A stretch of DNA of 64,000 nt from an uncultured Bacteroidales bacterium (GTDB taxonomy: Bacteria > Bacteroidota > Bacteroidia > Bacteroidales > FEN-979), in assembly GCA_903885595.1 (NCBI GenBank), contig CAISJJ010000068.1:10671-74670 (forward strand), read 5' to 3'. The position numbers were made by a program, and so were the translations under genes. Of this stretch, positions 20,189 through 57,798 are shown in pieces. The notes below the pieces were generated by a model. The model ran no database searches. It worked only from the letters and a program-made list of their open reading frames with translations, and had not been told where the DNA came from. Position 1 is the first letter of the stretch. Every line of letters begins with the position of its first letter.

Positions 20189-20209
20189 CAATTATATTTT
20201 AAATATCCT

Positions 20210-20217: not shown

Positions 20218-20239
20218 CAGTTCATAAACGTCATACTAT

Positions 20240-21259: not shown

Positions 21260-21260
21260 T

Positions 21261-23355: not shown

Positions 23356-23373
23356 ATCTAAAACTCTGAACAA

Positions 23374-36299: not shown

Positions 36300-36300
36300 T

Positions 36301-41444: not shown

Positions 41445-43252
41445 GTTTTTGTTTCACTACTATATTGTTTGAGCAACTTGGCCGGATTGCCTCCCACAAT
41501 GGAATAGGGGGGGACGTTTTTTGTGACAATGCTTCCGGCAGCTATCACCGCATGTTTGCCTATCGTTACACCGGCAACAACAACGGCATTGGCGCCGATC
41601 CACACCTGGTCTTCAACCACGATGTTGGAAAATGTACTTTTCTGTTTACTGGGGGGAGTGTTAATATCTTCATAACCATGATTTAATCCAGATAGCACAA
41701 TGTTTTGGGCAAACATAATATCGTTCCCTATGGTTACTGGTCCAATGATCACATTGCTCATTCCAATCCGGGTACGGTCGCCGATAATCACCGACCCAAC
41801 TCCGTTATTTATAGTCGAAAAGTCTTCAATGGTTGAATCATTTCCCAGTTTGAAATCATTCCAGGGGAACACATCAATTCGTGTCCGCCGACGGATTGTC
41901 GACCGCTTTCCCCGCTTATGTATGAACGGGTTGATGAAAAGTTTCACCCATGTCCTGGGGCGCGCCTGGTTATTGGGAATAAGCGACCATAGCATAAATT
42001 TCTTGATCCTGGGGTTCGATTTGAACCTGGACAGCCATGATGTTGACTTTTGAATTTTGGGTGGAGGTTGATCATTTTTAACGAGTGCTATCGCTTTATA
42101 AATCTCGTTTACATTGGCTTCCCAGGTATGACTGCGGGCAAATTCTTCACGGGCTTTGGCTAAATCAGGGGTGTTCTCTTTCAGTGCACGTTCGACCAGG
42201 GATAAATACTCTTCTTTTGAGCTGGCGAGGTAGGTGAAGGTTTCGAACACCTTCATTGCTTCTGTCCTCGTTGCGACTACTGGTTTTCCCATCGAAAGGT
42301 ATTCATCAATTTTTCGGGGATAATTTCCGATCGTTACTTCATTAAGTATTTGCGGATTGATCGCAACATCGAAGGTTGCCAGGTACATAGGCAACTCGGC
42401 AGGATTTTTACTGCCAAGAAAATGGACATTATTCAACCGGTGAAGTTCACTTGCTTTAAATGCCTCATCTTCAGGTCCAACGAGAACGATTGACCAATCA
42501 GGACGTTGTTTTGCAAGGTGGGTTATTATTTCCATGTCGAGCCGCAGGGTGAACAAGGCGCCAATATAGCCAATAATTGGATGATTTATCTTCTGAATAT
42601 CATCAGGGACAGTCTTGATCAGTTGCAAATCAAATGCACTTACATCACAACCCTGGCCAACATAATAGGCGTGGGGGTTGAATTTTTTCAGATAACCGGC
42701 CAGGTAGACTGAGTTTGCAACTGCAAGATCCGATTTCCGAATGAGGGCTGCTTCAATGCGGATTCCCTGTGTTTTCCACCAATCGACGGCAATCATGTTA
42801 TCGCGCGAATAATAGATATACAATGATGGCTTCAAATATTCTTTCAGGTAAAAACTTCTGAACATATCACTATCATTGAATAGCACAAAGTCTTTGAAGC
42901 CGAGTTTGTTTACCGCCCATGAAATCTGTTTTGCAAACCGTTTATTGTTTATTTTATTCAGGAAATCAAAAATGGCATCATATGGAACCTGGCTGATTGA
43001 TTCCAACATGGTACGGGGATAAAAACTCCATAAATTATCCTGGATTTTAATAAGGTTTTCAAGTTCACCCCTGAGCATTTTTTTCCGTTTTCCGATCTTC
43101 GGGTTATGGCGCTCCCGGTAAGCCGTCAGCCTGTCGAGTGGGTAGTTTACATAAAGTACCCGATGCTGTTTCGCAAATTCAATCGCAAGATTGATGCAAT
43201 TACTTCCAATATCGCTATCAAAAGCCTGTAAACCGGTTATAACAATATCCAT
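41423..43252 (-). CDS. bifunctional fusion: GT-B glycosyltransferase (TuaH-like, aa 1 to about 395) plus hexapeptide-repeat acyltransferase (aa about 410-609)
   Basis: 609 aa. The N-terminal part aligns end to end with the 28954..30171 product (MDIVITGLQ...SHTWEANV). The C-terminal part aligns with the 33363..33974 product (NQARPR...FINPFIH..GK...IGD...VWIGANAVV..GV.IGKH.V..AGS.VTK.VPPYS...GNPA.LL.QY). Confidence 0.8.
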   Translation of the reverse strand: MDIVITGLQAFDSDIGSNCINLAIEFAKQHRVLYVNYPLDRLTAYRERHNPKIGKRKKMLRGELENLIKIQDNLWSFYPRTMLESISQVPYDAIFDFLNKINNKRFAKQISWAVNKLGFKDFVLFNDSDMFRSFYLKEYLKPSLYIYYSRDNMIAVDWWKTQGIRIEAALIRKSDLAVANSVYLAGYLKKFNPHAYYVGQGCDVSAFDLQLIKTVPDDIQKINHPIIGYIGALFTLRLDMEIITHLAKQRPDWSIVLVGPEDEAFKASELHRLNNVHFLGSKNPAELPMYLATFDVAINPQILNEVTIGNYPRKIDEYLSMGKPVVATRTEAMKVFETFTYLASSKEEYLSLVERALKENTPDLAKAREEFARSHTWEANVNEIYKAIALVKNDQPPPKIQKSTSWLSRFKSNPRIKKFMLWSLIPNNQARPRTWVKLFINPFIHKRGKRSTIRRRTRIDVFPWNDFKLGNDSTIEDFSTINNGVGSVIIGDRTRIGMSNVIIGPVTIGNDIMFAQNIVLSGLNHGYEDINTPPSKQKSTFSNIVVEDQVWIGANAVVVAGVTIGKHAVIAAGSIVTKNVPPYSIVGGNPAKLLKQYSSETKTWERMKQ

Positions 43253-43274
43253 ATGTCTTCCTTTTCGGTTTATC

Positions 43275-44411
43275 TCATTTTACTGCAAGTTCCATGTAAA
43301 GGTTGAGTACTTGTTCGGCCATCGCTTTCCATGAAAACTTTCGTGCATTATCAAATCCCTTAAGGATAAGGGATTCGCATAGCGATGGGTCAGATAATAG
43401 TTTCTTCATGGCCCCGGTAATCTCTTCGGGGTTAAAAGGATTGATGAATAATGCGGCATTTCCACCAACTTCGGGCATTGAACTGGTATTGGAGGTTATG
43501 ACTGGTATACCGCAAGCCATGGCCTCCAGCATAGGAATTCCAAAACTTTCGCGAAGGGAAGGATAAAGAAAAATCGTGCTGAGTGCATATAAAGCAGGCA
43601 ACTCAGTATTGGGCACATATCCGGTAAGATGAATGTACTCATGAAGTGTGGGATCACCTATATCATTGATGATCCTGGTTAACTCAGTCCTGTCAAAATC
43701 AAGCATGACCAGGGGAATTTTTTCTTCTGATGAATTGAGAAAAAGTGAAAGCGCTTTCAGAACGCCCGGTGTGTTCTTTTTCGGATCGGTATTCCCGAAG
43801 AAAAAGAAGAATTTGTCAGGTAGCCTATATTTGGCCTTGATCAGGTTTAAATAGTCCTTATCTGAGACCGGCTTGAAATGGTCACTGACACCATTATAGA
43901 TAGCTTTGAGTTTATGGTCGTTCACATGAAAAAATTCACCGATCCGTTTTTTTTCAAATTCAGATACGGTGATGATCCTGGCACTGCTGCGCACAACTTG
44001 CGGTACAACGAAACGCCGGTAAAGGTTCCCGAATTTCTGATAGGAAGTGAATCCCTTTTTCAGAATACTCAGACTTTCCATGTAAATGATATCATGCAAG
44101 GTGATGATAAGTGGCACTGATGTAACGACAGGCGCGGTATTGCTCGTACAATGCAGGATATCGCAGTGAGCTTTTTTCGCTGCAGCAGGCAGGTTGACCT
44201 GCTCCCAAATTGGATAGGGGGCCGGGGCTACCTCAACGATTTTAAAATTTGCCCTTTCGTCAAGGCAGTGGTCGACATCATTTTTTACAAAAATGAAATA
44301 CTCATTTTTGCTGTCTATATCCTGGAGATTCCTGATCAACTCCAGGGCTACCATATCCATTCCGTGCTTTTTCTGCCGGAACAGGCGCTGCCCTTCAATC
44401 CCAATCTTCAT
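43275..44411 (-). CDS. family-4 (GT-B, RfaG-like) glycosyltransferase
   Basis: 378 aa. The C-terminal segment YPSLRESFGIPMLEAMACGIPVITSNTSSMPEV is the EX7E region. Confidence 0.85.
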   Translation of the reverse strand: MKIGIEGQRLFRQKKHGMDMVALELIRNLQDIDSKNEYFIFVKNDVDHCLDERANFKIVEVAPAPYPIWEQVNLPAAAKKAHCDILHCTSNTAPVVTSVPLIITLHDIIYMESLSILKKGFTSYQKFGNLYRRFVVPQVVRSSARIITVSEFEKKRIGEFFHVNDHKLKAIYNGVSDHFKPVSDKDYLNLIKAKYRLPDKFFFFFGNTDPKKNTPGVLKALSLFLNSSEEKIPLVMLDFDRTELTRIINDIGDPTLHEYIHLTGYVPNTELPALYALSTIFLYPSLRESFGIPMLEAMACGIPVITSNTSSMPEVGGNAALFINPFNPEEITGAMKKLLSDPSLCESLILKGFDNARKFSWKAMAEQVLNLYMELAVK

Positions 44412-45598
44412 TTTTCATCATTTTTATAACTGTGTTCCGTATGGATGAATTCTTTATTACTTCCCCGTATTTTAAAAATGATCATAACCATCAGAAAGAA
44501 CACTTTTGGAAGGGAAATCAATGCCATAAGTGTTTTTTTGCTCCAGAATTTTTGGGGAACTGAAATTACCAGGGTGGTTAAGATCATGATTAACAAACCC
44601 AACCAGCAATATTGAAAGCGTGGATTTGGAATGAACAGGTTCAATAAATTCACAAGAACGAGTATGCCCAACAGCATCACACGGGGAGGAAGGGAGAATT
44701 GCAGGGTCTTATCAAAATAGTCAAAATTACGATGGGCGATTAAGTGCCAGACAGACACGATAAAATCTCTGCCGAAAAAGTAAAACTGTGCATAAATCCA
44801 GCGTTTGCGTTGTTTGTAAAACACGCTTGCATTCTGAACTTTCTCGTCCAGGACATAAGCATCCTGAAGATATTCAATTTTAACCTTTTCGCGTAAGATC
44901 AACAATTCAAGTTCTTTGTCAAAACCACCTATGGCGCTTAACTGCGGGATGTATCGCCTGAACAGCTGGGCGTCGAAAACCATGGCGGAGCCGATCAATG
45001 CAGATGAAATGCCGAAAAGACGATGTCCTGCCCTGAAAATGTTATTATTGATCTCTTCACTGATCGCATCCAGCAGGGCAAAGGATGTATTGGTGTTTTT
45101 GGCAATACGATGGCATTGAATGACTTTATAACGAGACTCGCTTGCCATGTTGATTTTGTCGAGAAAATGATCTTCCATAATATTATCTGCATCGAGCACC
45201 AGTATCAGGTCGGTATCAGCACGGAGATGATTCAATGCAATCTGCAGCGATTTAGCTTTTGTACTGTATTCAAAATGTGCTTCAACAAGGGTAATGGGTA
45301 AAATTCTGAGCAATTCAAGTGTTTCGGTTTTAAATGAGTCGGCTATCAGAATTATGCTGAAGGAAGAAGTGGGATAATCCTGGTTCAGCGCCGATTTGAT
45401 CACTTCAATAATCACCGGATCTTCCATAAAAGCCGGAATGACTATACTGATATGTCTTTTTTTAGATACCGGATATTTTTTGTCTTTCCCTCTCAGGAGA
45501 CCTGCAACTGCGAAGACCAGTAAATAAAGAGATGCCCCACCTAAATAGGCCAGAACAATGAGCTGCAGGATATGTAGGATTGATCTGATATGTTCCAT
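44408..45598 (-). CDS. multi-TM family-2 glycosyltransferase, processive-synthase-like (QRKRW motif)
   Basis: 396 aa. It has an N-terminal TM and a GT-A core (IVIPAFMED, LDADNIM, FDKELEL), then KQRKRW followed by four predicted TM helices. It is a paralogue of the next gene. Confidence 0.8.
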   Translation of the reverse strand: MEHIRSILHILQLIVLAYLGGASLYLLVFAVAGLLRGKDKKYPVSKKRHISIVIPAFMEDPVIIEVIKSALNQDYPTSSFSIILIADSFKTETLELLRILPITLVEAHFEYSTKAKSLQIALNHLRADTDLILVLDADNIMEDHFLDKINMASESRYKVIQCHRIAKNTNTSFALLDAISEEINNNIFRAGHRLFGISSALIGSAMVFDAQLFRRYIPQLSAIGGFDKELELLILREKVKIEYLQDAYVLDEKVQNASVFYKQRKRWIYAQFYFFGRDFIVSVWHLIAHRNFDYFDKTLQFSLPPRVMLLGILVLVNLLNLFIPNPRFQYCWLGLLIMILTTLVISVPQKFWSKKTLMALISLPKVFFLMVMIIFKIRGSNKEFIHTEHSYKNDEK

Positions 45599-45607
45599 AC
45601 GTATCTG

Positions 45608-46810
45608 TTATTTAGGTGTACTGATATCTTTTTGTACAGTATGTGTCGTATGACCAAAACCCCGTTTGGCTTTGAAGATCCGGAAGAGTGAACCAAGCAT
45701 GAAGATGAACCCTTGAGGAAGGACAAGTACCGCTTTTAAGGTCTCGATGTTAAAGTAGGGACCTGGGATTGAGATTAGCAGCATGAAGGTACACAAAGCC
45801 GTAAGTGCAATCCAGCCAATGGCTATTGGCAATGGGTTAAATAAAAACGAGAGAAGTGAGATAATGACAAGGAAACCCATCAGGAAGATCCTGGGAGGCA
45901 AAAACTGTTGAAATACTTTGTCGAAATAATCAACATTTCCTCTGACAAATAACTCTTTTAAACTTGAAATAAAGTATTGTCGTGCATAAATGAATTGGTT
46001 TGCCAACCACCTGGTTCGCTGAACCATAAATACCTGTGATTTTTGAACTTTTTCGTCGTAAACATATGCATTTTCACAATACTCGATACGTTTCCTGTCT
46101 CTTAAAAGTTTAATTTCCAATTCTTTGTCTTCTCCAAATGAGTCAATGGTTGACATATAATCTTTAAACATTTTATAATCGAAAGCCATGCCGCTGCCGA
46201 TCAGGGCTGATGATAGCCCGATTACGCGATGACCTTTGCGAAAAATGTGGTTGTTGATCTCTTCACTTACTGAATCAAGCACAGCGAAGGATGTATTTCT
46301 GTTTTTGGCTTTGCGGTGTCCCTGAATAGCAACAAATCCACTGGAAAGTGCAGCATTCATTTTTGTTATAAAGTCCTGTGCCATTATATTATCGGCATCA
46401 AGAATGATAACGGCATCATAAATGTCGGGCAGGATGCTCATGGTTTTATTTAATGCCCTTGATTTGGAGCTTTTTTCAAATGACACTTCAATCACCTTGA
46501 CAGGTAACTTGCGAAGTTCGTCAATGGTCGTTTGCTGAAATGAATCGGCAATGATGATCACATCAAATTGGGAAGGTGGATAGTCCTGGTGCAGAGCCTG
46601 TTTTGCAACTTCGATAATCACGGCATCTTCCTTGTATCCCGGGATCAGGACTGCGAACTTGCGGGTCACTTTATCCTTAACAGGTTTCAGAGTATATCGG
46701 AAAAGCCCTGAAATAGAGAAAATGGAAAAATAAAGTGCGGCAATAAAGAAATAAAAAAACACGATTGCTTCAAGAGCCAGGAGTGCAAAACAGAGGTAAT
46801 CTTTTGCCAT
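45608..46810 (-). CDS. multi-TM family-2 glycosyltransferase, processive-synthase-like (QRTRW motif)
   Basis: 400 aa with the same architecture as 44408..45598 (VLIPGYKED, LDADNIM, GEDKELE, VQRTRW, C-terminal TM bundle). Confidence 0.8.
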   Translation of the reverse strand: MAKDYLCFALLALEAIVFFYFFIAALYFSIFSISGLFRYTLKPVKDKVTRKFAVLIPGYKEDAVIIEVAKQALHQDYPPSQFDVIIIADSFQQTTIDELRKLPVKVIEVSFEKSSKSRALNKTMSILPDIYDAVIILDADNIMAQDFITKMNAALSSGFVAIQGHRKAKNRNTSFAVLDSVSEEINNHIFRKGHRVIGLSSALIGSGMAFDYKMFKDYMSTIDSFGEDKELEIKLLRDRKRIEYCENAYVYDEKVQKSQVFMVQRTRWLANQFIYARQYFISSLKELFVRGNVDYFDKVFQQFLPPRIFLMGFLVIISLLSFLFNPLPIAIGWIALTALCTFMLLISIPGPYFNIETLKAVLVLPQGFIFMLGSLFRIFKAKRGFGHTTHTVQKDISTPK

Positions 46811-46890
46811 AAGATGGTTGTTTATGAAAAAATCAGATGAGCTGCTGAAGCAAAGTTAAATATAAATCAAACCGAATACAATATCACCAT

Positions 46891-47814
46891 TTATAAATAA
46901 GGATTGTCATGTATTTCAGAACTGATTGATCTTTTCAGATGCCAACCGATAGCCCTGACATATGCATAAAACAATGAAAATTTGCCCTTAATCAGAAATT
47001 TCAGTGCATTCCTTGGAATTGCAACCATTAGCTGATACAGTATTCCTATTAAAAAATCAATCCCAAAAACATTTCTCCGCATAAATACGATGCGGTTGCG
47101 GTTCAGATAATATATTTTCATGGGGCTTAATTTCCCCACCGAGATTGACTCTTTATGATAAACCAGCGAATTATGGACATAGAATATTTTATAACCGGCC
47201 CTTTTGATTCGGTAACTCCAATCGGCTTCTTCATAATAAAGAAAAAAAATGTACGACATCAGCCCAACCTCTTTAATAACCCGCATGGGCACCATCATAG
47301 AAGCGCCATGTGCATAGGGGGTTTCATGATCGCGGTCATGCTGTCCCTTATCTTTTTCTTTATGACCAATGGCGAAATTACGCATGGTCCGGTGGTTGAT
47401 CGGGGTATAGCCAGCGTATTGTATTAAATTACGATCGTAATAGTAACGGAGTTTTGAACTGACAGCGCCAATGGTTTTATCCCTCTCCAATTTATCTACC
47501 AGCGGTTCAAGAAATCCCTTATCAACAATAGTATCATTATTCAACAGCAGCACATATTCACCCCGGGCACGCATGATACCCTGGTTATTGCCACCTGCAA
47601 ATCCATAATTGATGATACTCTCGTAAAGGATTATCGAAGGGAAACGCTGTTTAATAATCTTGGGGTTATCAGAAGGAGAGGCATTGTCGATGATGATGAT
47701 TTCAATATTTGGATAGGATATTTTAGTCAGTGATTCAATAAACTCGCACGTATCCTCTGACCCGTTGTAATTAACCGAAACAATAGAAACAAGCGGATAG
47801 TTTTTTTGTGCCAT
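46891..47814 (-). CDS. family-2 glycosyltransferase (soluble type, WcaA/rhamnosyltransferase-like)
   Basis: 307 aa. Contains VSIVSVNYNG, LLNNDT and YYEEADW. It is a paralogue of the next gene. Confidence 0.85.
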   Translation of the reverse strand: MAQKNYPLVSIVSVNYNGSEDTCEFIESLTKISYPNIEIIIIDNASPSDNPKIIKQRFPSIILYESIINYGFAGGNNQGIMRARGEYVLLLNNDTIVDKGFLEPLVDKLERDKTIGAVSSKLRYYYDRNLIQYAGYTPINHRTMRNFAIGHKEKDKGQHDRDHETPYAHGASMMVPMRVIKEVGLMSYIFFLYYEEADWSYRIKRAGYKIFYVHNSLVYHKESISVGKLSPMKIYYLNRNRIVFMRRNVFGIDFLIGILYQLMVAIPRNALKFLIKGKFSLFYAYVRAIGWHLKRSISSEIHDNPYL

Positions 47815-47847
47815 GTTTACAGGTTCTATGTGTTTCAGTATTCATTT

Positions 47848-48795
47848 TCAGTTAAGACGCGGACTTTGATAAAGTTCAGGGTTATGTAAATTCTTTATGT
47901 GCCAGATGATAGCCCTGGCATAGGCGATAAAAAGTCTGAATTTGCCTTTTAGCAGAAAAACAGCCAGGTTTTTGGGAATGGCAATAAATACCTGATAAAA
48001 CAGTGACGCGATAGCTATCATTCCATGAACATTCCGACGCATATAGAGCAATCGGTTCCTGTTTAGGTAGAAGATTTTCAATGGACTCATTGTTCCTGTT
48101 GTGATAGAGTCCTTATGAAATACCAGGGAGCTGTGAACGTAAAAGATTTTATATTTTGCATCCTTGATCCGCTGCATCCAGTCCATCTCTTCATAATAAA
48201 GGAAAAAAATGTCGGCCATTAAGCCAACCTCCTTCATGACTTTCATTGGTATAACCATAGCAGCTCCGAATGCATAATTTGTCTGCGCATCTGAATCATA
48301 CTGTCCATGGTCGATTTCATTAAAACCAATCCCGTTGTTACGGATTGTGATCGGATTTATGGGGGTGAACCCTGCGTACTGAATGGTATCGGGAGTGAAA
48401 AAATATCTGATTTTCGGGCTTACAACACCAATTTCAGGATTGTTTTCCAATTTAGCAATCAAAGGCTCAAGGAACCCGGAATCAACTTCCGTATCATTGT
48501 TTATCAACAAGGCGTATTTTCCTTTTGCGACCCGGATCCCCAGGTTGTTTCCTCCGGCAAATCCAAGGTTCAGATCACTTTTAATTAAAGTGATATAAGG
48601 GTACTTTTCAAGGATTATGTCAGGATTTTTTGAAGGGGAGGCGTTATCTACAACGATAATTTCGATTGACGGATAGGTTATGTGCGTAAGTGATTCAAGA
48701 AGATCGCAGGTTATTTCCGGCTGATTGTAATTGACCGTAATTATAGAAACCAAAGGAAAATTTAAAAGTGGTTTCTCAATCATAATTTCTGACAA
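47848..48795 (-). CDS. family-2 glycosyltransferase (soluble type), tandem paralogue
   Basis: 315 aa. Contains VSIITVNYNQ, LINNDT and YYEEMDW. It is collinear with the 46891..47814 product. Confidence 0.85.
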   Translation of the reverse strand: MSEIMIEKPLLNFPLVSIITVNYNQPEITCDLLESLTHITYPSIEIIVVDNASPSKNPDIILEKYPYITLIKSDLNLGFAGGNNLGIRVAKGKYALLINNDTEVDSGFLEPLIAKLENNPEIGVVSPKIRYFFTPDTIQYAGFTPINPITIRNNGIGFNEIDHGQYDSDAQTNYAFGAAMVIPMKVMKEVGLMADIFFLYYEEMDWMQRIKDAKYKIFYVHSSLVFHKDSITTGTMSPLKIFYLNRNRLLYMRRNVHGMIAIASLFYQVFIAIPKNLAVFLLKGKFRLFIAYARAIIWHIKNLHNPELYQSPRLN

Positions 48796-48982: not shown

Positions 48983-50470
48983 TTAAACTGATAATTGAGG
49001 TTGATTTTCCAAGGAACTTTCTGCCAGTTGCTCGTCAAGGTCAGGCGCAATAAATACGTATGCCATACTTGCATATATCAGCAATCCCGTAGGAAACTGT
49101 CCAAGAACTGCATTCCCGTAACTCGCTATAATAATACCGAATATACCAGCCAAAAGGGCTCCTGTTTTAACAAATAAATCCTGGTTTTTAATCTCGAACA
49201 TACAGATAAAGGTTCCCTTGCCAATGATAAACCCGATGATGAACAGGTGAATATACAATCCGACAATTCCGGTTTCGGCCCATATCAGCACAAACCAGCT
49301 GTCGGTAGCAACATTTGCCAGGAAAGCGTCAGGTGTATATTGCAATGCCCTGTTTCCTGCGTGCCCGATACCTCCTCCGAAGGGCCTGGTCTTCAGATAT
49401 TGTTCAAAAAGCCGCTGATTTGCCAGACGAACCTGGTAAGAGGCATCTTCTTCAGGAACGAAGGCGGTTCGCATACGGTAAATCTGGTAGTTGGAATTGC
49501 CTATATAGGTAAAACGGAAGAATGAATAAAAAAGCAAAAAGAGGATGCTTCCAATAAAAATAACCTTAATGTTTTTCCGGAGAATCATGTATAGGAATAA
49601 TCCGGCCATAGGAACAAAAATGGCGCCGCGTGTACCCGAGCTTGACATTCCGTAGTACCCGGCGATCATGACCACAATCCAAAAAAAACGCTTTTTTGTA
49701 TCTTTTTCGTTAAACATCAGTATCGTTGCGATCAAACCGATTTGTGCCTGGGCAGCTCCAAACTGGCCTGCATCGGTATAGAAAGAAAATGCACGCAGAT
49801 TCCCGAGCAGGATATGGGTGACAGCACCACCTCCTTCATAAAGCCAGCGTTCTTCCCACGCATCGGGTCCTATGTTTATTTGTATCCATGCTTTAACGGA
49901 AGCAAGAATCGAGAAAATTCCCCAAATTATCAGAAATTTATCAAGGTGGCGGGGCGAGTTATACAGCATGAATACCAGCGGGATGGTCAGAAGCATGTAT
50001 AACCCGATCCCGCGAAATGAAGCAAACCATGCAGCTTTACTGATGGCTTCCGGATTAAACAACTCCATGCAAATGTAAATAAACCAGATGGCTGCCAGGA
50101 TGACAAGATCAAGTTTTAAGGACTTTATTGGCCATCTTCTGTCAAAATAATGAAAGAAAATAGAAATATAAATTACTACAAGGGTGATATCCATTACATA
50201 ACCAAGTTTAATGGGCAGATAACGCGTAAGTCCCATTAAAATGAAATTAATAATGAAGGCAAAGGTGAGCCCAAGTTCAGGCTTTGCAATTAACCGGTTC
50301 AGGGCATAAGCAAGAAATGGTAAAACCATCAATACAGATGCTACCGTAAATCCACCTCTGGCAATTACAAAACCGATCCCGACTGACATAACGAGTACTG
50401 AGCCAATCAGAAATGGATCTTTCAGACGGTCGGAGCCTGTTCTGTAATAAAATGGATTAATCTGATTCAC
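48983..50470 (-). CDS. O-antigen ligase/polymerase (Wzy-like) family membrane protein
   Basis: 495 aa with about 11-12 predicted TM helices and a large loop. The composition is typical of the Wzy_C family. The start codon is GTG. Confidence 0.7.
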   Translation of the reverse strand: MNQINPFYYRTGSDRLKDPFLIGSVLVMSVGIGFVIARGGFTVASVLMVLPFLAYALNRLIAKPELGLTFAFIINFILMGLTRYLPIKLGYVMDITLVVIYISIFFHYFDRRWPIKSLKLDLVILAAIWFIYICMELFNPEAISKAAWFASFRGIGLYMLLTIPLVFMLYNSPRHLDKFLIIWGIFSILASVKAWIQINIGPDAWEERWLYEGGGAVTHILLGNLRAFSFYTDAGQFGAAQAQIGLIATILMFNEKDTKKRFFWIVVMIAGYYGMSSSGTRGAIFVPMAGLFLYMILRKNIKVIFIGSILFLLFYSFFRFTYIGNSNYQIYRMRTAFVPEEDASYQVRLANQRLFEQYLKTRPFGGGIGHAGNRALQYTPDAFLANVATDSWFVLIWAETGIVGLYIHLFIIGFIIGKGTFICMFEIKNQDLFVKTGALLAGIFGIIIASYGNAVLGQFPTGLLIYASMAYVFIAPDLDEQLAESSLENQPQLSV

Positions 50471-50491: not shown

Positions 50492-51298
50492 TCATTTGAA
50501 TGAATTAATTTTTTTAACTGCCATATTCATGTTATCGACCAGCACAAATTCAAACTCGTTCCGTGGATTAAAATAGGTTTTGATCTCATCCAGCCCACTC
50601 AGTTTCCACTCGATGATGAACAGCAGATCAGGATGCCCGCTTATGAAATTCATCGCTCCAGCAAGCACTTCCGGTTCCATACCCTCTGTGTCGATTTTGA
50701 TCATGATCTTGTCAGTTTTGTTTAATTTCAGCTGGTCTGTTACTGAATCAAACGTTCTGATTTCAACTTTTTCTATTTTTTTCAGTCCCACGATGGAATG
50801 ATCGTAATGCGTTGAAGCGGCCAAGTGGGAAGCTCCGGTGTTTATTGTTTCGAAAATGAAGTCCTCTTCACTGTTACTTGATCCAAGTCCAAAATTAAAC
50901 GGTGTGATTTTATGTCCGAGGTCATTTAACAGGATATTGATTTTTAAAGCAGAATAATTTTCTTTCGCTGGTTCAAATGCAAAGCATTGCAAACCCATTT
51001 TTGCCATGAGGACACTATAGGTGCCAATGTTTGCGCCAATGTCGATAAATACGTTGTACTCCTTGTAATGTTTGAAGAAAAACTGTTTTACATTCCATTC
51101 GTAGGCATAATTAGCAAACTGAAAGTCCAGAGTTCCCTTGCGTGAAAAAAAAAGTCCGATGCTGCTTTTGTATAGCCGGTTTCTACTGGTGGTCCTTTTG
51201 AATATGATGTATTTAATGGAGGTCAGGAGAAACAGGTATTCGCCATGCTTCATGTAATCAATTAAATAGCGATAAAAAGTTACCAGTTTTACAATCAT
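50492..51298 (-). CDS. FkbM-family methyltransferase
   Basis: 268 aa. Contains FIDIGANIGTYSV and CFAFEP. The C-terminal IKIDTEG.E..VL.G is the FkbM family signature. Confidence 0.8.
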   Translation of the reverse strand: MIVKLVTFYRYLIDYMKHGEYLFLLTSIKYIIFKRTTSRNRLYKSSIGLFFSRKGTLDFQFANYAYEWNVKQFFFKHYKEYNVFIDIGANIGTYSVLMAKMGLQCFAFEPAKENYSALKINILLNDLGHKITPFNFGLGSSNSEEDFIFETINTGASHLAASTHYDHSIVGLKKIEKVEIRTFDSVTDQLKLNKTDKIMIKIDTEGMEPEVLAGAMNFISGHPDLLFIIEWKLSGLDEIKTYFNPRNEFEFVLVDNMNMAVKKINSFK

Positions 51299-52677
51299 TT
51301 GATTCTTTTTGCAAGAAGCCGTATAGCATTTTCTTTGTAAAAAGCATATCCTTTTCTGAATATTTCAAAGAAGGAGATATCTATTTCCTGTTTCAAAAAT
51401 TTATAGCCGATAAAAATTCCGATGAGTGCAAAAACTATTGATGCAAGAGCTACAAATAACAACAGGGTTGTTACAGGGAGTTCAGGGAACAGGTAATGCA
51501 TTCCGAATACCGCAAATATATCACCCAGGATATTGGCAGATGTCATAAAGAGAACTTTCTGAAAATTTCGCTGTGGTTTATTGAGGCTATCCAGGGCGAC
51601 ACCGGTAAAACGGTCCAAAGGTAGCAGGGTACAATATACAACGAACACGATCATGATGTAGGATATCTCAGTAAGCGATGCCATGTATTGGGTTCCACCG
51701 ATAATAATGATAAACAACTTATTAAAGAAGAGACCAAGGATTGCTATAGCAATAAAAAGGAAAACAACGATTCCCGTGTACGAATAAAAGATTTCACGGA
51801 ATTTGTTCTGGTCATTATCAAGACTTGCTTTTGATAATTTGGGAAAAGCGGTAGTGGCAAAACTGATGAGTGGAATTTCAATGAGCTCAACATACTTGAG
51901 AGGGATTGCATATAAGGCAACGCCAATCGGACCGCAATAGGCGCTGAAGGAGATAATAAAACTATCGGCTCCTTTAAGCAGGCTGCTACCAACTTTGGTT
52001 CCCATTGAAAACTGGCCATACCTGAGAACCTCCTTCATCTTAATCCAAGAGATGTGTCTGAAAAATTCAATCCCTGTCCATTTTTTTATAAGGCAGAAAG
52101 CTGAAGTTGCAAAATTAGTCAGCAGATAAATCATCACAACTACAGTGATGTTTATTTTGATCAGGAAGTAGGCAGCGAAAATTATAATAAGAAAGGAGCA
52201 CAGGTTAAAAAAACGGATCCAGAATATTCTTTTGAAATTCAATTCAGCCTGGAAGATTGTCCAGGCGTAATTCCAGGGAAGGTTAATGAGCGCAAGGACC
52301 GGATACCAGTAACAAAAAACATCATAACCACTGCTATTCAGTGCATCGGGAATGAGGAATGTCAGACTCCACAGGATAATAGTGATTGGAATCAGGATTA
52401 AAAAACCGATGGCCCAACTGGAACCCAGGTAATACTTCCGGTCCGTTTCGGTAGGTGAGGATAAAAACCTTACCAGTGCTTCTTTACTGAGTCCAAACCG
52501 CATCATATCAATCAGGGAGGCAGGAGCGGTGAACAACACCCATTTACCGAAATCAGGGATGGAGAGCATGCGCATCAGGATCATAAAAGATAAAAGACCC
52601 ATGACAGCGGTGGAAAAATTTGCCGCTAAAGATAGAAAGTTTAGATCATTGACTAATTTAGATAGTGTCTTTTTCAA
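51295..52677 (-). CDS. oligosaccharide flippase (Wzx / polysaccharide biosynthesis protein family)
   Basis: 460 aa with about 12 TM helices of MOP-superfamily composition. It overlaps the FkbM gene by ATGA. Confidence 0.8.
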   Translation of the reverse strand: MKKTLSKLVNDLNFLSLAANFSTAVMGLLSFMILMRMLSIPDFGKWVLFTAPASLIDMMRFGLSKEALVRFLSSPTETDRKYYLGSSWAIGFLILIPITIILWSLTFLIPDALNSSGYDVFCYWYPVLALINLPWNYAWTIFQAELNFKRIFWIRFFNLCSFLIIIFAAYFLIKINITVVVMIYLLTNFATSAFCLIKKWTGIEFFRHISWIKMKEVLRYGQFSMGTKVGSSLLKGADSFIISFSAYCGPIGVALYAIPLKYVELIEIPLISFATTAFPKLSKASLDNDQNKFREIFYSYTGIVVFLFIAIAILGLFFNKLFIIIIGGTQYMASLTEISYIMIVFVVYCTLLPLDRFTGVALDSLNKPQRNFQKVLFMTSANILGDIFAVFGMHYLFPELPVTTLLLFVALASIVFALIGIFIGYKFLKQEIDISFFEIFRKGYAFYKENAIRLLAKRIK

Positions 52678-52678: not shown

Positions 52679-55339
52679 CTAGATTATGTTCTTTTCATGA
52701 AACCGGAAAGTCAAAATCTGTTTCATCGTTCTTCTGAATTTAGACCTATGGCGCGGAAGTTCACCAAAGATGGCATCAAGGTATATCAATTCTACCCCAT
52801 TGAGAACGATTTGCGTATTTTGCTTGAAGAGTGGAATGAAGGCATTCAATGCCGTACTATCGGCAGTGGTCCATGAACGGTTTGCCCTTGTGACAAGTAA
52901 GGAGAAATCGAATTGCCGGATGAATTCCAGTGGGTATGGATTATTAATCAGGGAAGGTATTTCGACAAAAATATAATCAAAACTCTCCAAATCAATATGT
53001 TCATATCCGACCATCAAGGTTGCGAGGTCCTTTGCATCAAAGAAATTTTCTTTTATCGAATACTGGATCTCATCTTCGGCTGGAGGGATCAGTTCCCCAC
53101 CGGCAATATAGCTTGGATTTCCGCCTGTCTCCTTGACATAATTCAAGAACAGCACATTTTCACCAAATGATTTGAGTTTTCTGCTGAGTTCTCTACCGAT
53201 ACTGGTCTTGCCTTCTGAGTCGCGTGTACTGAAAAGAAGGATCATCACCGGCTTTTTATACTGTGTAATATTGGCTCTGACCAGGGCCAATTTAACATTT
53301 TGAGCCAATATTTCAACCAATCTTGGAATGATGAATCCGATGTCAACCGCATAAATTTGTTTTGCAATCTGGGGATAGACCCCGGCGACTTTGAGTTTAA
53401 TAAAGCGTTCAGCTCTTTCAGGTGTTTTGATCGTTGTATCAAACAATTCCATTGCAAGCAGCAAGGCTACAACCAGAATGAACCCGACGAAAGCGGCAAG
53501 GAGAACAAGTAACAGCATTTTTGACCTGATAGGGTTCAATGGGTAATAAGGAGGGTCGACTACCTTTATATTGGTTCTCAATTCATCATCCTGTTGTCGT
53601 AGTTTTGCCAGGTTCAGATCATGAAGCAGTTGTAAAAACTCACTTTCCGTAACGGCGATCAATCGTTCGATACGTTTCATTTCAGCTCCAAGGGGCGCAA
53701 ACACTTCATAAACATGCTGGAAATATTTTTTCCGTTCGGCTAAAACCCTGAATGCAGCTCTGCTTTCTTCATATGCGATGACATTTTTAAGCCATGCATC
53801 CAGTAATTCCTTGGTTGGTAATCCTTCAACACTGTTGACTACAAGGTACAAGCGGTCGATATTATCCTTTATAGCTTGTTTAATATTTTCTACCCTCGCT
53901 TTCAAACCCTCCACCTGGAGGATTGTTGCGGAATCGTTGCCAAGATCGATCTCAATGTTAGCTATCTGCATGGTAGTCTCCGACAATTCGTTTCGTAATC
54001 GGAGTATTGCGCTGGTGTTCAGCGAAAGTTTGGCATGGGCTTCCAGCTTTTTTTCAATGATTTTGATTGCAGCATCCGAAGAGGCGAAGGCAATTTGTTT
54101 GTTTTGAAGCGCAACGTCAAGTTCTTCCTTGGTTATGGCGATGATTTTTGTTTGCTCGTAATAGTTGATGATGTTGTTGCGCTCATTGAAAATCAACAGG
54201 TCGTTTTCGGCCTTTTTAAGCCTGCGTGCAGCATCCTCCAGCTGTCGCTTAAAATACTGGATTACTGCATCTGTTTGATTTTGCTTAAGCAATTTATAAT
54301 TTGCAATAAAAACGCGTGTTAAAAAGATGAGGGTTTGCTGGCAAATTCCCGGATCAGGGTTGGTGTAGGTCAATTTGACCAGGTCACTGCTCTGGATCCT
54401 GTATATGCCTATTGTTGAAAGAACCTTAATGCTGTAAAACCGGTCTTCCTCTGAACTCCATAATTTATAGATGAAATTATAATTATTCTGATGCCCGTAA
54501 GCCAGCAGCCTTTTAACGATTCTATCAAAAGCAGATGAATCCTGGGTTCCTCTTGTAACAGTGACCAGGGTATCGCTGCTGATAAAATAGTCATTTACTG
54601 AAGAGGATGAATCTCCTGCGGGTGAAGGCTCCGGTTCATATTCCTCTTCAGGTGCGGGAGAGGCCTCCGGTAAATTTTCAATACTGCTGACCAGGAGTTT
54701 TTGTCCGACCGAAATACTGTTGCCCCTTAAATCATTGTACGACATCAATTCGTCCACATTCAATCCATTTGCTTTGGCAATTGAGTACATCGTTTCGCCT
54801 CGCCTGACCACATGATATTTTTTATTTTCATTTGAACGGGAGCGTGACTGGGAATATTCTCCGTTTTGTTCGTTCAGATCATTCTGGTACAGCGACGTGT
54901 CAATTCTGGAGGTTTGCTTTGAAGGAGGGCGGTAATAACGTTTATCATTTCGTTTTGCTTTTTTTACGATATCAACAACATCGGCCGGAACTTTTGCAAG
55001 CAGTTCGTCGTAGTTTTCTTTTGAAATATAACGTGGATCAGCATGATCCAGCAAAAGATGTTGTGCAAGCAGACAAACCGAAACTTCCTCGAGTGTTTGT
55101 CTTGATTTAATAAGGTTGATGAGATTGTCAAACGAAGCAGCCGTTGCCATATAATCGACGGTAGCTTGCTGCTGAACAGAGTAGCCCGATGTAACCCCGG
55201 TATATATTGTCGTTTCGGATACATACGACCATTGACTTTTCCTGGTTAGAATAAAAACAACCGCGGCTATGATCAGAGGGACCAGAATCAGCAAAAGAAT
55301 ATGCCTCTGAAGTAACTTTAGGAAATAAATAATTTTCAT
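52679..55339 (-). CDS. polysaccharide co-polymerase / chain-length determinant (Wzc/GumC-like) with an inserted LysM domain and a degenerate C-terminal P-loop domain
   Basis: 886 aa. It has an N-terminal TM, a Wzz-like start (SYVSETTIY), LysM at aa 175-217 (YHVVRRGETMYSIAKANGLNVDELMSYNDLRGNSISVGQKLLV, nt 54689-54817), a long coiled-coil region and a second TM (LLLVLLAAFVGFILVVALLLA). The C-terminal Walker-A-like motif is FSTRDSEGKTS, and there is no Tyr-rich tail. Confidence 0.75.
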   Translation of the reverse strand: MKIIYFLKLLQRHILLLILVPLIIAAVVFILTRKSQWSYVSETTIYTGVTSGYSVQQQATVDYMATAASFDNLINLIKSRQTLEEVSVCLLAQHLLLDHADPRYISKENYDELLAKVPADVVDIVKKAKRNDKRYYRPPSKQTSRIDTSLYQNDLNEQNGEYSQSRSRSNENKKYHVVRRGETMYSIAKANGLNVDELMSYNDLRGNSISVGQKLLVSSIENLPEASPAPEEEYEPEPSPAGDSSSSVNDYFISSDTLVTVTRGTQDSSAFDRIVKRLLAYGHQNNYNFIYKLWSSEEDRFYSIKVLSTIGIYRIQSSDLVKLTYTNPDPGICQQTLIFLTRVFIANYKLLKQNQTDAVIQYFKRQLEDAARRLKKAENDLLIFNERNNIINYYEQTKIIAITKEELDVALQNKQIAFASSDAAIKIIEKKLEAHAKLSLNTSAILRLRNELSETTMQIANIEIDLGNDSATILQVEGLKARVENIKQAIKDNIDRLYLVVNSVEGLPTKELLDAWLKNVIAYEESRAAFRVLAERKKYFQHVYEVFAPLGAEMKRIERLIAVTESEFLQLLHDLNLAKLRQQDDELRTNIKVVDPPYYPLNPIRSKMLLLVLLAAFVGFILVVALLLAMELFDTTIKTPERAERFIKLKVAGVYPQIAKQIYAVDIGFIIPRLVEILAQNVKLALVRANITQYKKPVMILLFSTRDSEGKTSIGRELSRKLKSFGENVLFLNYVKETGGNPSYIAGGELIPPAEDEIQYSIKENFFDAKDLATLMVGYEHIDLESFDYIFVEIPSLINNPYPLEFIRQFDFSLLVTRANRSWTTADSTALNAFIPLFKQNTQIVLNGVELIYLDAIFGELPRHRSKFRRTMKQILTFRFHEKNII

Positions 55340-56148
55340 TAATCAATTTTATTTATTACGTTAAATTTTATGCCGGCAAACTCCTGCAGGAGCATGTAGG
55401 CATTATAGAAATTAAACCGCGATTCTTCATAGTCGGTAACTGCCTTACGATACATTTCATTGATGTAAGCCAATTCATATAGCGTGATCTGACCGTTGAG
55501 AAATTCTTTATCACCCATCTCTTTTTGAAGCGCCTGGGCATAAATATTTTCATTGGCAATTTTAAGAATACGTTGATTAACGATAAGCTGGTTATATTGA
55601 ACGATAATTAATTTCCGTAATTCAATTATTTGGTTGTCTTTGATTGCCATTGATTTTTCGACCTCTTTTGTTGCGGTTTTTATCCTGTTTTTACGATCCC
55701 AGAAGTCATCCATCGGCAAACGCACACTTACGCTGACAAGCGCCCGGTTATTGTCCTGGTACGATTGAAAGGTATTGCTGATTATCACCGGATTGGATAC
55801 ATCAAAATTCTGTGTATATGAATCCCAATAGTCTGTTTGTAACAATCCATCAATAAATAAATTCTGCATCCATTCCCTTTTGGCAGTTTTGATTTTATAT
55901 TTCCAGATAGCAATGTCTGCATCCTGCGACCGCAGTAAAGGAGAATTTACGATAGCGCTGTCAATAAGGTCTTCCAGCGGAGGAATGCGTAAGGTTATGT
56001 CATCCACAAACGGGTTGAATGTCGCGGCTGAATCCTGGTTGTTGCTGGAACCCTGAAAGAATCCTTGTCCAAAGAATAAAAGTGGAGAACAAAATAGAAT
56101 TAGGACCAATAAAAATGTATGTCTTGTTTTCATATCCACTTGTTGCAT
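55339..56148 (-). CDS. secreted half-size TolC/OEP-like protein (single outer-membrane-efflux-protein repeat)
   Basis: 269 aa with a signal peptide. The pattern LEDLIDSAIVNSPLLRSQDADIAIWKYKIKTAKREW....L, then RLPM.D...R...I..A..E.......... and ...F..G.IT..EL........A...Y......F....LLQEFAGI, follows one OEP repeat. That is about half the length of canonical TolC-family proteins. Confidence 0.5.
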   Translation of the reverse strand: MQQVDMKTRHTFLLVLILFCSPLLFFGQGFFQGSSNNQDSAATFNPFVDDITLRIPPLEDLIDSAIVNSPLLRSQDADIAIWKYKIKTAKREWMQNLFIDGLLQTDYWDSYTQNFDVSNPVIISNTFQSYQDNNRALVSVSVRLPMDDFWDRKNRIKTATKEVEKSMAIKDNQIIELRKLIIVQYNQLIVNQRILKIANENIYAQALQKEMGDKEFLNGQITLYELAYINEMYRKAVTDYEESRFNFYNAYMLLQEFAGIKFNVINKID

Positions 56149-56160: not shown

Positions 56161-57393
56161 CTAGACATTTTCTTTTTGAATGAATACTGCGAATGTTCTG
56201 ATAATTAACTTTATATCTGTCCAAAATGAACTGTGTTCTGCATAATAATTATCAAGGGCAAATCTTTCCTCTTCCGACATTGTCCCTTTTGTACCGCGTT
56301 TTTCCACTTGCCAGAGTCCGGTAAGTCCGGCGGCAGCCCTGAAGCGTCGGCTCCATTTCTTTTTTGTCAGGGCCTCGGCTTCATTTAGTGGCAGGGGGCG
56401 GTTCCCGACAATTGACATATCTCCTTTCAGAATGTTGAATAATTGGGGCAATTCATCAATACTGGTCATTCGTATGAATTTTCCGACTTTCGTAATCCTC
56501 GGATCGTCCTTGATTTTCAGGAACGCCTTTTTTGCACTGCGTCGTTTGTTGGCCAGGCGTTCGCAAATTTCTTCCCCGTCATAATAAACAATTGGCGAAC
56601 AAGTGTTACCAGCAGGCAATTTGGCACATTCTGTACAGGATACCTCAACCGATTCACTGATATATTGATTCAGATGGGCGACATCTTTAATCCGTGCATC
56701 GGCATCGGGATACATCGAGCGGAACTTATAAAAATCAAAAATTTTATAGTTGGATCCGACACGTTTGGCAATATAATAAACTTTTCCCCTTGATTCAATC
56801 ATAATCGCAATGACGGCAAGCAACATGATGGGCGACAGGATAAGAAGTGCGAAAAGTGCAATGATTATATCGAAAATGCGCTTCGGTAAAGGTGTTTTAT
56901 ATGGCGTCATATCTTCATCCTGCAACGACATTGGCTTTGGAACATATTCTGTCTTGAATTTGTTCAGGAAAAGAATTCTGCTATGCAAATTATCAACATC
57001 TAATTTTTTATAATAAAAATCGTCAACGCCCATGTTGAAGGCCTCTTGTTTGATAACATCATCCCTGAAAAAGGATATAATGATAAAAGGGGTTTTGGGA
57101 TAGACCTTATTCAGTTTCAGTTTACGGAAAAACAATAACGCATTGATGCCGGGCAGTACAAATTCAGTAACAATGGCATCAATTTTTTGTTTTTCCTGAT
57201 AGACCTTTTCGAAACGGGTATCCTGGTCAAGGTCAAAAAGGTTAAACTGGTTATCTGTTAACCAATGGAGCGCAGCCAGCCCATTCGGTAGGTGTGTGAC
57301 GCTAAATAAATCGCTTTTTTCGAAAAGATCAATGGATTGCTGATCGTTTCCAATATAAAGGATTTTCAAACATCTGGCGGCATCTTCATCCAT
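56161..57393 (-). CDS. priming sugar-phosphate transferase (bacterial sugar transferase / WbaP-EpsE type) fused to an N-terminal atypical receiver-like domain
   Basis: 410 aa. The C-terminal part is KRIFDIIIALFALLILSPIMLLAVIAIMIESRGKVYY...RVG.....F..YKFRSM......DELPQLFNILKGDMSIVGNRP. The N-terminal about 150 aa aligns by eye to a CheY-like fold, with the acidic pair reading ND and the phospho-acceptor position reading Glu (VTEFVLPG, Glu77 codon 57163-57165). Confidence 0.85.
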   Translation of the reverse strand: MDEDAARCLKILYIGNDQQSIDLFEKSDLFSVTHLPNGLAALHWLTDNQFNLFDLDQDTRFEKVYQEKQKIDAIVTEFVLPGINALLFFRKLKLNKVYPKTPFIIISFFRDDVIKQEAFNMGVDDFYYKKLDVDNLHSRILFLNKFKTEYVPKPMSLQDEDMTPYKTPLPKRIFDIIIALFALLILSPIMLLAVIAIMIESRGKVYYIAKRVGSNYKIFDFYKFRSMYPDADARIKDVAHLNQYISESVEVSCTECAKLPAGNTCSPIVYYDGEEICERLANKRRSAKKAFLKIKDDPRITKVGKFIRMTSIDELPQLFNILKGDMSIVGNRPLPLNEAEALTKKKWSRRFRAAAGLTGLWQVEKRGTKGTMSEEERFALDNYYAEHSSFWTDIKLIIRTFAVFIQKENV

Positions 57394-57399: not shown

Positions 57400-57798
57400 C
57401 TAGTTCCCCCTGCGTTGCGAGTATAAGTCCTTAAATTCCAGTCGCCGTTTTATTCTGGCAATCAATTCTTTGGGATTAAATGGTTTAAGCACATAATCGT
57501 CAGCTCCCATTTCAAAGCACTTAATTTTATCTGCGCTCTCTTCCTTCCCTGAAAGCATTATCAGCGGAATTTCATCAAAGAAGCCGCTTTCCCTGATCCT
57601 TCGAATAAACTCAAAACCATTTAAAACGGGCATTTCGACATCACAAATAATAACATCAGGAAGGTTCCCGGTCTGCAAATAGAAAAGGGCATCCATTCCA
57701 TTACTTATCGAAGTGACTTCGAAGTCCTTGTTAAAGGTATTTTCGATGATAAACCGGATACTCTTTTCATCATCAATCGCGAGTATCTTTTTCTTCAT
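57400..57798 (-). CDS. single-domain response regulator (CheY-like receiver)
   Basis: 132 aa with canonical residues: ILAIDDE, DVIICDVEMPVLNG, LIMLSG, VLKPF. Confidence 0.9.
   Translation of the reverse strand: MKKKILAIDDEKSIRFIIENTFNKDFEVTSISNGMDALFYLQTGNLPDVIICDVEMPVLNGFEFIRRIRESGFFDEIPLIMLSGKEESADKIKCFEMGADDYVLKPFNPKELIARIKRRLEFKDLYSQRRGN

Follow-up and report, generated by a model that had tools for sequence, protein, structure and literature searches.

A single-repeat TolC-like protein encoded with a LysM-bearing, Wzc-like co-polymerase in a Bacteroidales polysaccharide locus: a candidate outer-membrane exit

The genome of an uncultured Bacteroidales bacterium (GTDB lineage FEN-979; GenBank assembly GCA_903885595.1) carries, side by side in a polysaccharide cluster, a gene for a secreted TolC-like protein of about half the usual size and a gene for a Wzc-like polysaccharide co-polymerase (PCP) with an inserted LysM domain; this pair is the subject of the present analysis. 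The window analyzed comprises 64,000 nucleotides (nt) of contig CAISJJ010000068.1 (forward-strand positions 10,671 to 74,670); positions given below are those of the window, and genes lie on the minus strand unless stated otherwise. The first gene of the pair (55339-56148; longest open reading frame (ORF) 269 amino acids (aa)) encodes a single OEP repeat, and its product is referred to here as half-OEP. The second (52679-55339) encodes an 886-aa protein of the PCP-2a (Wzc-like) type with a LysM insert and a C-terminal pseudokinase-like P-loop domain. The two genes meet at the junction gatTAATGaaa, in which one base is common to stop and start. The ORF positions, those of the LysM domain and the 1-nt overlap are all as given in a preliminary description of the locus made from the sequence alone. 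Current database names are generic ('TolC family protein' for half-OEP and 'LysM peptidoglycan-binding domain-containing protein' for the PCP), NCBIfam holds a dedicated model for neither, and no description of the half-OEP or LysM-PCP families was found in the open-access PMC and bioRxiv literature.

Half-OEP passes the Pfam membership threshold for OEP (PF02321) with one repeat (aa 58-257) that extends over positions 1-185 of the 187-position profile (E = 3.3e-14; 53.6 bits versus a cut-off of 22), and Pfam assigns it to no other family; the best NCBIfam match is TIGR01844 (TolC) at 3e-3. Two tandem repeats per protomer, in ~430-500 aa, are the norm for outer-membrane factors (OMFs), and here a single repeat occupies 269 aa. 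This length is itself probably five residues too long, because the homologues and the gene calls of other databases begin at Met6 (MKTRH..., nt 56133), which would give a 264-aa protein in place of the longest-ORF product MQQVDM.... A predicted signal peptide (aa 1-27; 56068-56148), with a basic n-region and a hydrophobic core, ends in ...FFG directly before QG, and the Gln28 that follows is nearly invariant in a 47-sequence alignment of the family (A1). Mature proteins of Bacteroidota often begin with Gln. A lipoprotein was considered and rejected, as Cys20 is unconserved and a lipobox is lacking.

The AlphaFold2 (AF2) model of half-OEP (predicted local distance difference test score, pLDDT, 79.7) has the element order H1-H2-β-β-H3-H4, with helices at residues 58-68, 70-95, 146-217 and 223-258 and strands at 98-108 and 133-143. 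The corresponding lengths are 11, 26, 11, 11, 72 and 36 residues, and those of the helices nearly match one repeat of OprM, for which section 6.2 of PMC8277102 gives 13 (H1), 23 (H2), ~12 (strands), 67 (H3) and 36 (H4) residues. In agreement with the Pfam result, the best 38 fold matches in the PDB found with Foldseek are all OMFs (TolC, OprM, CusC, CmeC, VceC, MtrE, OprN, SilC and ST50); template-modelling scores are 0.50-0.55 for the query (TMq) and ~0.33 for the target (TMt), and ~205-230 of the 400-490 target residues are aligned, about half of each. The earlier assignment of the 269-aa protein to a single TolC/OEP repeat is borne out by profile and fold alike, and its description as secreted by the signal peptide. 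In sequence searches of PDB chains, weak matches to DnaA and amine oxidase (E>0.1) were dismissed as chance.

Two parts of the model bear on how such a protein might work. The strands at aa 98-108 and 133-143 form a predicted transmembrane β-hairpin (55720-55857) with a variable, low-confidence outer loop. Among 45 diverse members, down to 22% identity, these strands show an alternation of hydrophobic and polar residues, conserved Tyr, Gly and Pro, and Tyr or Gly at their outer ends, a pattern as would be expected for a membrane β-hairpin. At the opposite end, a predicted periplasmic helix-turn-helix tip (aa 214-222, KEFLNGQIT; 55483-55509) joins the 72-residue helix 146-217 to helix 223-258. 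In alignment A1, Q220 of the tip never varies and K214, E215, F216, N218 and G219 hardly do; F216 and G219 are still 84% and 80% conserved, respectively, when the diverse alignment A3 is considered.

The half size characterizes a whole large family and not this one gene. Of 110 half-OEP homologues, 102 span 228-274 aa and the remaining eight are shorter and probably partial; those with names are called 'TolC family protein' and come from Bacteroidota or Bacteroidales metagenome-assembled genomes (MAGs), and the 47 sequences of alignment A1 are strongly conserved. When 1.84 billion cluster representatives (clusters at 50% identity) were searched with the profile, 732 clusters reached E<=1e-3, and at least 443 reached E<=1e-10. 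Every one of the best 150 clusters is 121-295 aa long with a single matched stretch, which identifies the single repeat as a family trait, and most of these 150 are <40% identical to any member whose gene context was examined. A truncated or pseudogenised TolC was accordingly rejected, given a signal peptide of its own and a length conserved across >440 clusters.

The 886-aa partner has the architecture of a PCP-2a protein, with two transmembrane helices around a large, mostly helical periplasmic domain in the AF2 model (pLDDT 74.7) and by Foldseek, where full-length Wzc structures are the best matches (9r62_K, 1.2e-15; 7nhr_A, 1.6e-14). By sequence, the Pfam matches to Wzz (aa 7-87; 20.4 bits versus a cut-off of 25.5) and GNVR (aa 564-629; 24.2 versus 27.7) are both sub-threshold, and the chain-length determinant model TIGR03007 matches aa 308-661 (4e-14) far below its own cut-off. 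On the strength of the model we assign the protein, for which 740 homologues were collected, to the Wzc-like PCP-2a co-polymerases. Transmembrane helix 1 (aa 14-32; 55244-55300) is an AF2 helix with the hydrophobic sequence ILLLILVPLIIAAVVFILT. It is followed by a modelled membrane-proximal α/β base (aa 38-131 and 270-327) that the LysM domain interrupts, and by a predicted periplasmic helical arm (aa 330-588; 53576-54352) composed of helices 330-387, 393-436, 442-464, 470-497 and 509-588, the last of them 80 residues long. Two turn motifs of the arm, FNERNNIINYYEQTK (384-398; FN..NNIINYYEQTK) and NSVEGLP (501-508), rank with the best-conserved parts of the periplasmic region in 64 PCPs, with G506 invariant. 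The predicted transmembrane helix 2 (aa 608-632; 53444-53518) is preceded by a conserved VVDPPYYP, and D595, P597 and P600 are invariant.

The cytoplasmic domain (52682-53422) has a predicted P-loop fold of the BY-kinase (bacterial tyrosine kinase)/MinD type. Its Foldseek matches, led by the Wzc kinase domain 3la6 (3.7e-6) and including 6z0p, 3cio and 3bfv, range from 4e-6 to 1e-4 with TMt 0.50-0.58; next after full-length Wzc rank kinase domains solved in isolation, those of Wzc, BceF, Etk and CapAB. At the sequence level, the PCP family profile reaches MinD (4v02, 4e-6), Wzc (5e-4), PslE and VpsO (7e-3). Kinase motifs were counted in 136 distinct PCP family members. Walker A, xGK[ST], occurs in 136/136, mostly as the EGKT that is also kept here, so its reading as degenerate in the preliminary description does not hold. 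The same description placed a Glu at Walker A'; this residue sits at Walker B (YIFVEIPS), where the family has E-h-P in 112/136 members, D-h-P in 2/136 and no pattern match in 22/136, and Walker A' (hhDxDxR) is found in 0/136. The absence of a Tyr-rich tail, by contrast, was correctly recognized: the protein ends in a basic tail, ...PRHRSKFRRTMKQILTFRFHEKNII, with no Tyr-rich cluster, and the last 30 aa hold no Tyr in 104/136 members, one in 28, two in 3 and three in 1. With Walker A' and a Tyr tail both missing, a Wzc-type cycle of Tyr-tail phosphorylation would be impossible for this domain, and an active BY-kinase, already doubted at the outset, was rejected. The lack of Walker A' and of the tail would fit a pseudokinase, but the Walker A Lys and a Walker B acid are kept; the domain probably still binds nucleotide, and ATP binding or hydrolysis may persist. 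Motifs invariant in the family (alignment A4) are R-A-N-R-x-W-x-x-x-D (aa 818-827), L-N-G (846-848) and a G-x-x-P-x-x-R that precedes a basic amphipathic tail; in distant members the segment from Walker A to Walker B is shortened to ~30 residues.

The LysM domain (aa 175-217; 54689-54817) is well above its profile threshold (PF01476, aa 176-217; E = 1.5e-12; 47.7 bits versus a cut-off of 20.9). In the AF2 model it forms a β-α-α-β unit at aa 173-219 (strand 173-177, helices 184-190 and 195-202, strand 214-219; pLDDT ~76-86), and PDB matches are found by sequence (4xcm, 4.9e-8) and with the family profile (LytE, 8i2e, 1.1e-23). As the preliminary description had proposed, it lies between low-complexity linkers, both predicted to be disordered (pLDDT <50): 34 residues upstream (aa 138-171; 54827-54928), variable and gap-rich in alignment A2, and a Pro/Glu/Ser-rich stretch of 47 residues downstream (aa 221-267; 54539-54679), likewise variable in A2. 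The number of LysM copies is not constant. Among 112 full-length top homologues of the PCP, 97 have one copy, nine have two and six have none, with the same insertion point whatever the copy number; distant PCPs (~690-790 aa) lack the domain, as do a few that are close. LysM is therefore a clade-specific accessory and not a defining feature of the system.

The LysM insertion suggests a direct tether between the inner-membrane PCP ring and the cell wall. In a different role, LysM would bind the nascent polymer, if this contains N-acetylglucosamine (GlcNAc), or the lipid-linked repeat unit, and so act as a periplasmic glycan receptor. LysM domains do bind GlcNAc glycans including chitin, and the PDB matches include chitinase and plant LysM receptor domains; a jelly-roll glycan-receptor domain has been proposed at the membrane-proximal face of E. 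coli Wzc in the Wza-Wzc study; and the copy number varies from 0 to 2 among loci with different sets of glycosyltransferases. Against these points, the best LysM matches are anchors of peptidoglycan hydrolases (LytE, a cell-wall-binding endopeptidase-related protein and MltD), long disordered linkers would be better suited to reaching a layer far off than to work on a membrane-side substrate, and the cassette is unchanged in LysM-free members, which implies that the core handling of the polymer can do without LysM. We consider a receptor role unlikely.

The pairing of the two proteins extends well beyond this genome. A genome scan with the closer half-OEP alignment A1, which under-samples distant branches (partly offset by a branch of ~25% identity), identified 38 loci, all of them in MAGs and mostly from Bacteroidales, Prolixibacteraceae or unclassified Bacteroidota, with Ferruginibacter and Cytophagaceae MAGs as the distant members. 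Wherever downstream sequence was available, a PCP of this family lies directly downstream of the half-OEP gene (41/41 loci), with an overlap of 1 nt in 34/41 and of 4 nt in 4/41. Adjacency is thus invariable, and overlap usual, across Bacteroidota down to ~18-25% half-OEP identity. Of the co-occurrence of half-OEP with a LysM-bearing PCP that had been raised initially, the pair itself stands, while LysM, with its 0, 1 or 2 copies, drops out as a constant part. The pairwise-identity matrices of half-OEP and PCP correlate with r = 0.97 (38 distinct pairs), indicating that the two are inherited as a unit; r alone does not demonstrate physical contact. Two contigs of the scan are filed under other phyla, SACF01000050.1 as an 'Alphaproteobacteria' MAG (half-OEP 73% identical) and CAYMTB010000498.1 as a 'Syntrophorhabdaceae' MAG (52% identical). 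Both have Bacteroidota-type gene content and are therefore probably mis-binned.

The surrounding genes are those of a Wzx/Wzy-dependent pathway. The tightly packed cluster occupies ~33.4-57.8 kb and begins with a stand-alone response regulator (57400-57798; receiver domain only, Pfam Response_reg 1.9e-28), the first gene of the conserved cassette. The initiating phosphoglycosyl transferase (PGT) follows (56161-57393; Pfam Bac_transf 1.9e-59 at aa 171-405; TIGR03025 2.7e-70), fused to a receiver-like N-terminal domain (aa 67-140; Response_reg 1e-9). Behind half-OEP and PCP come a Wzx-type flippase (51295-52677; Polysacc_synt 5e-11), whose position right after the PCP gene is conserved, an FkbM-family methyltransferase (50492-51298; TIGR01444 3.2e-24; Methyltransf_21 6.2e-13) as a locus-specific tailoring gene, and a Wzy-type polymerase (48983-50470; Wzy_C 4.2e-9), which is conserved in related loci. 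The remainder of the cluster consists of seven glycosyltransferase genes identified by Pfam (40245-48795; five GT2, one GT4 and one fusion of GT4 with a hexapeptide acyltransferase), a β-helix protein with a type IX sorting domain, further methyltransferases and two hybrid histidine kinases.

Neighbours of the pair were compared with those in nine other distinct contexts (genes with precomputed Pfam hits, <=10 kb either side), one of them from the ~25%-identical half-OEP branch. All share the core (Hpt)-response regulator-PGT-half-OEP-PCP-Wzx-Wzy, in which Hpt denotes a histidine phosphotransfer gene, and the response regulator gene stands ahead of the PGT gene in every related context examined. 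The hybrid histidine kinases end the cluster in the present locus (35004-37713), and the Hpt gene is an addition seen in distant loci; a receiver-bearing PGT in such company points to a phosphorelay that directly controls the pathway's first enzyme. In two loci of a very divergent branch (L048, 2427-9465; L050, 4633-11633), the order is Hpt-response regulator-PGT-half-OEP-PCP-Wzx-Wzy-acyltransferase with no glycosyltransferase gene nearby, which would imply either that one (acylated) sugar makes up the repeat unit or that the glycosyltransferase genes lie at another site.

A conventional exit for the polymer was sought among the same genes. The Pfam scan of the 64-kb window covered ORFs of >=150 aa (>=120 aa beyond position 29000), and among these no Poly_export/SLBB protein, the signature of an outer-membrane polysaccharide export (OPX) protein such as Wza, was detected, in keeping with the absence of Wza from the locus noted at first reading. 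The scanned ORFs likewise held no HlyD-type adaptor, resistance-nodulation-division (RND) transporter or ATP-binding cassette (ABC) exporter, and no Wzb-type phosphatase (LMWPc or PHP-type) was reported for them. In the nine other contexts, no gene for an OPX/Wza protein, HlyD, an RND or ABC exporter or a Wzb-type phosphatase was listed either. A PCP-2a is usually accompanied by its cognate Wza and Wzb in the locus, and the 64-kb window contains neither. Similarly, OMFs usually work with a membrane fusion protein (MFP) adaptor and an inner-membrane transporter, and here the invariable neighbour is the PCP.

The last observation speaks to whether the pair exports polysaccharide at all, since half-OEP might serve efflux or type-I-like secretion and stand beside the PCP by chance, or be a decayed TolC fragment. 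Efflux pumps and type I secretion are indeed where the OEP family is most familiar (PMC8277102). Yet no HlyD/MFP adaptor, RND or ABC transporter was detected nearby in the window, the half-OEP gene is always found between the PGT gene and the PCP-Wzx-Wzy genes, and a decayed fragment is at odds with the intact signal peptide, the conserved length and the strong conservation over >440 clusters. Either version of this explanation is very improbable.

We instead favour, with a probability of roughly 0.6, a Wzx/Wzy exopolysaccharide pathway in which copies of a single-repeat TolC-like protein assemble into a homo-oligomeric outer-membrane duct docked on the PCP, such that half-OEP, and not an OPX protein of the Wza type, would form the outer-membrane exit. 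The export conduit of non-canonical type envisaged in the preliminary description, which had been drawn from one locus, gains support from the adjacency of the pair across Bacteroidota. Each half-OEP chain would contribute one β-hairpin to a barrel, and one long and one split helix to a periplasmic α-tunnel of ~100 Å. Because a chain gives two strands, a trimer could not close a 12-strand barrel; six chains would make a TolC-sized duct of 12 strands and 12 helices. With eight, every chain would have its own partner in a PCP octamer, and the pore, of 16 strands, would be wider. The conserved half-OEP tip and the PCP arm turns are candidate docking surfaces. Specifically, the tip (EFLNGQ) may dock on the distal arm turns of the PCP (384-398 and 501-508), which would make the path between the Wzy polymerase and the cell surface continuous. 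In AcrA/TolC, each OMF repeat tip is paired with one adaptor hairpin. The kinase-fold domain of the PCP might act as a scaffold or an ATP switch, as has been proposed for the EcpK and HfsB pseudokinases, and in the LysM clade the domain, on two flexible linkers with a reach of ~100 Å or more, could tether the inner-membrane ring to peptidoglycan. As to geometry, the 80-residue PCP helix would measure ~120 Å and the 72-residue half-OEP helix ~108 Å, a modelled sum of the order seen for Wza-Wzc, where the whole machine measures 360 Å and the periplasm 210-440 Å (Wza-Wzc study).

A competing reading retains an OPX protein. Half-OEP would then be only the membrane-embedded or an accessory part of a composite translocon, and a periplasmic or integral OPX protein encoded elsewhere would gate the polymer, as in the bipartite system of Myxococcus. 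Composites of a periplasmic OPX protein and a separate β-barrel are established (PMC12004946; PMC9603273), and the sequence inspected amounts to 64 kb of this genome and <=10 kb on each side in related loci. On the other hand, no OPX gene occurs in either set, the known composites keep theirs in the cluster, the tight 1-nt coupling is to the PCP gene itself, and a half-OEP helix of ~100 Å would span the periplasm and leave little need or room for the periplasmic domains of an OPX protein. We judge this arrangement to be quite unlikely.

Several points nevertheless weigh against a half-OEP duct. Searches of PDB chains with the half-OEP sequence and with the 47-sequence profile gave no OMF match, so the OEP assignment rests on Pfam and fold, and the family must be distant from the solved OMFs. 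The predicted template-modelling (pTM) scores of the two monomer models, half-OEP and PCP, are modest, at 0.58 and 0.40. A hexameric duct on a PCP octamer would entail a symmetry mismatch. Close relatives of the pair are all from MAGs. Finally, several capsule loci with Wza-like genes are common in Bacteroidota, and an OPX protein encoded elsewhere in the genome is conceivable.

Comparison with known systems separates what is familiar here from what is not. With TolC and other OMFs (PF02321; TolC 1EK9, OprM, CusC and CmeC), half-OEP shares H1-H2, two transmembrane strands, a ~70-residue helix and a 36-residue return helix in the model, as well as secretion, an amphipathic β-hairpin and a helix-turn-helix tip with a conserved Gly. 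It differs in having one repeat per chain (~250-270 aa) versus two (~430-500 aa), in needing six chains and not three for a closed 12-strand duct (other numbers being possible), in the lack of an evident equatorial-domain duplication, and in a genomic partner that is a PCP and not an MFP with a transporter, besides the missing sequence-level match to solved OMFs. With Wzc of the PCP-2a class (E. coli K30/K12; 7NHR, 9R62), the PCP shares two transmembrane helices, a helical arm, a proline-rich motif before transmembrane helix 2, a BY-kinase fold that keeps the Walker A Lys, and placement in a Wzx/Wzy locus that also encodes a PGT. Unlike Wzc, it lacks Walker A' and a Tyr cluster, has Glu for the Walker B Asp, carries LysM on disordered linkers in its membrane-proximal periplasmic region, gives only sub-threshold Wzz and GNVR matches in Pfam, and has neither Wzb nor Wza in the window.

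The nearest parallels to the kinase-like domain are Myxococcus xanthus EpsV/EcpK and Caulobacter crescentus HfsA/HfsB, in which, according to PMC12004946, a pseudokinase without catalytic and/or acceptor residues is proposed as a PCP scaffold in the absence of Tyr phosphorylation. The domain described here resembles these, by description, in its missing Walker A' and Tyr tail; it differs in being fused to the PCP and in its invariant GK[ST], whereas theirs is a separate protein in systems with OPX-type translocons. Half-OEP would fill the slot that Wza/OPX proteins, including the Myxococcus D1D2-OPX with its β-barrel, hold as the PCP-contacted outer-membrane exit for Wzx/Wzy polymer. The folds are unrelated: Wza has an α-helical outer-membrane barrel and Poly_export/SLBB domains, and neither domain was found here. 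A precedent for proposing a TolC-type duct as a polysaccharide exit comes from cyanobacteria. A TolC-like exporter with an HlyD-like adaptor has been proposed for cellulose in some of them (Thermosynechococcus; Maeda 2018, as cited in PMC8892547). The cyanobacterial system is synthase-dependent with an MFP adaptor, in contrast to the Wzx/Wzy-dependent locus with a PCP and a single-repeat subunit described here, and its TolC is reportedly a full-length, two-repeat one. For the LysM domain, the proposed function has a counterpart of another kind. In type IV pili the secretin is anchored to peptidoglycan by TsaP, a protein with LysM; in both cases LysM would tie a trans-envelope machine to the cell wall, but TsaP is a separate periplasmic protein at an outer-membrane secretin, and here LysM is within an inner-membrane PCP.

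Other features of the window touch the pair less directly. The right-handed β-helix/NosD-like protein inside the cluster (38540-40261) ends in a sorting domain for type IX secretion and may, once secreted, act on the polymer as a glycanase, lyase or epimerase. Type IX secretion genes are also grouped on the plus strand (17249-28929), where they encode a subtilase that carries a sorting domain, a protein of PKD/CHU_C type, a member of the PorP/SprF family and a 1191-aa protein whose Pfam match is the sorting domain only. Such type IX domains, along with the names of homologues, assign the organism to Bacteroidota. Two ORFs have no Pfam match at E<=1e-3, a 230-aa ORF (14959-15651) and a 578-aa ORF on the plus strand (31345-33081), the latter with a MaoC-SDR fusion gene on one side and the polysaccharide cluster's end on the other.

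The Wzx/Wzy pathway, the PCP-2a protein and the OMF repeat are all of known kinds; a widespread single-repeat TolC-like subunit in the exporter slot and a clade-specific LysM domain in a PCP are unusual. More precise names for the two proteins would improve on the present generic annotation. The recently proposed class of PCP-2 proteins that work independently of phosphorylation would be extended by this kinase-fold domain, which is fused to its PCP and has no Tyr tail. The internal repeat of TolC has long been read as the result of gene duplication, and a natural one-repeat homologue makes this idea testable. Tentatively, and at a little under even odds, we further suggest that half-OEP is a natural single-repeat TolC which, as a hexamer or a 16-strand octamer set tip-to-tip on a Wzc-like PCP, represents both a Wza/OPX-replacing class of translocon widespread in Bacteroidota and a pre-duplication (or secondarily split) building block of all TolC-type ducts. 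In current models, capsule and exopolysaccharide leave Gram-negative cells through an OPX protein (Wza), alone or with a β-barrel partner. If the proposed duct is correct, a single-repeat TolC-like protein in the OPX slot would provide Bacteroidota with a different route for long sugar polymers through the periplasm and the outer membrane, and this cassette would link polysaccharide export with the tripartite pumps.

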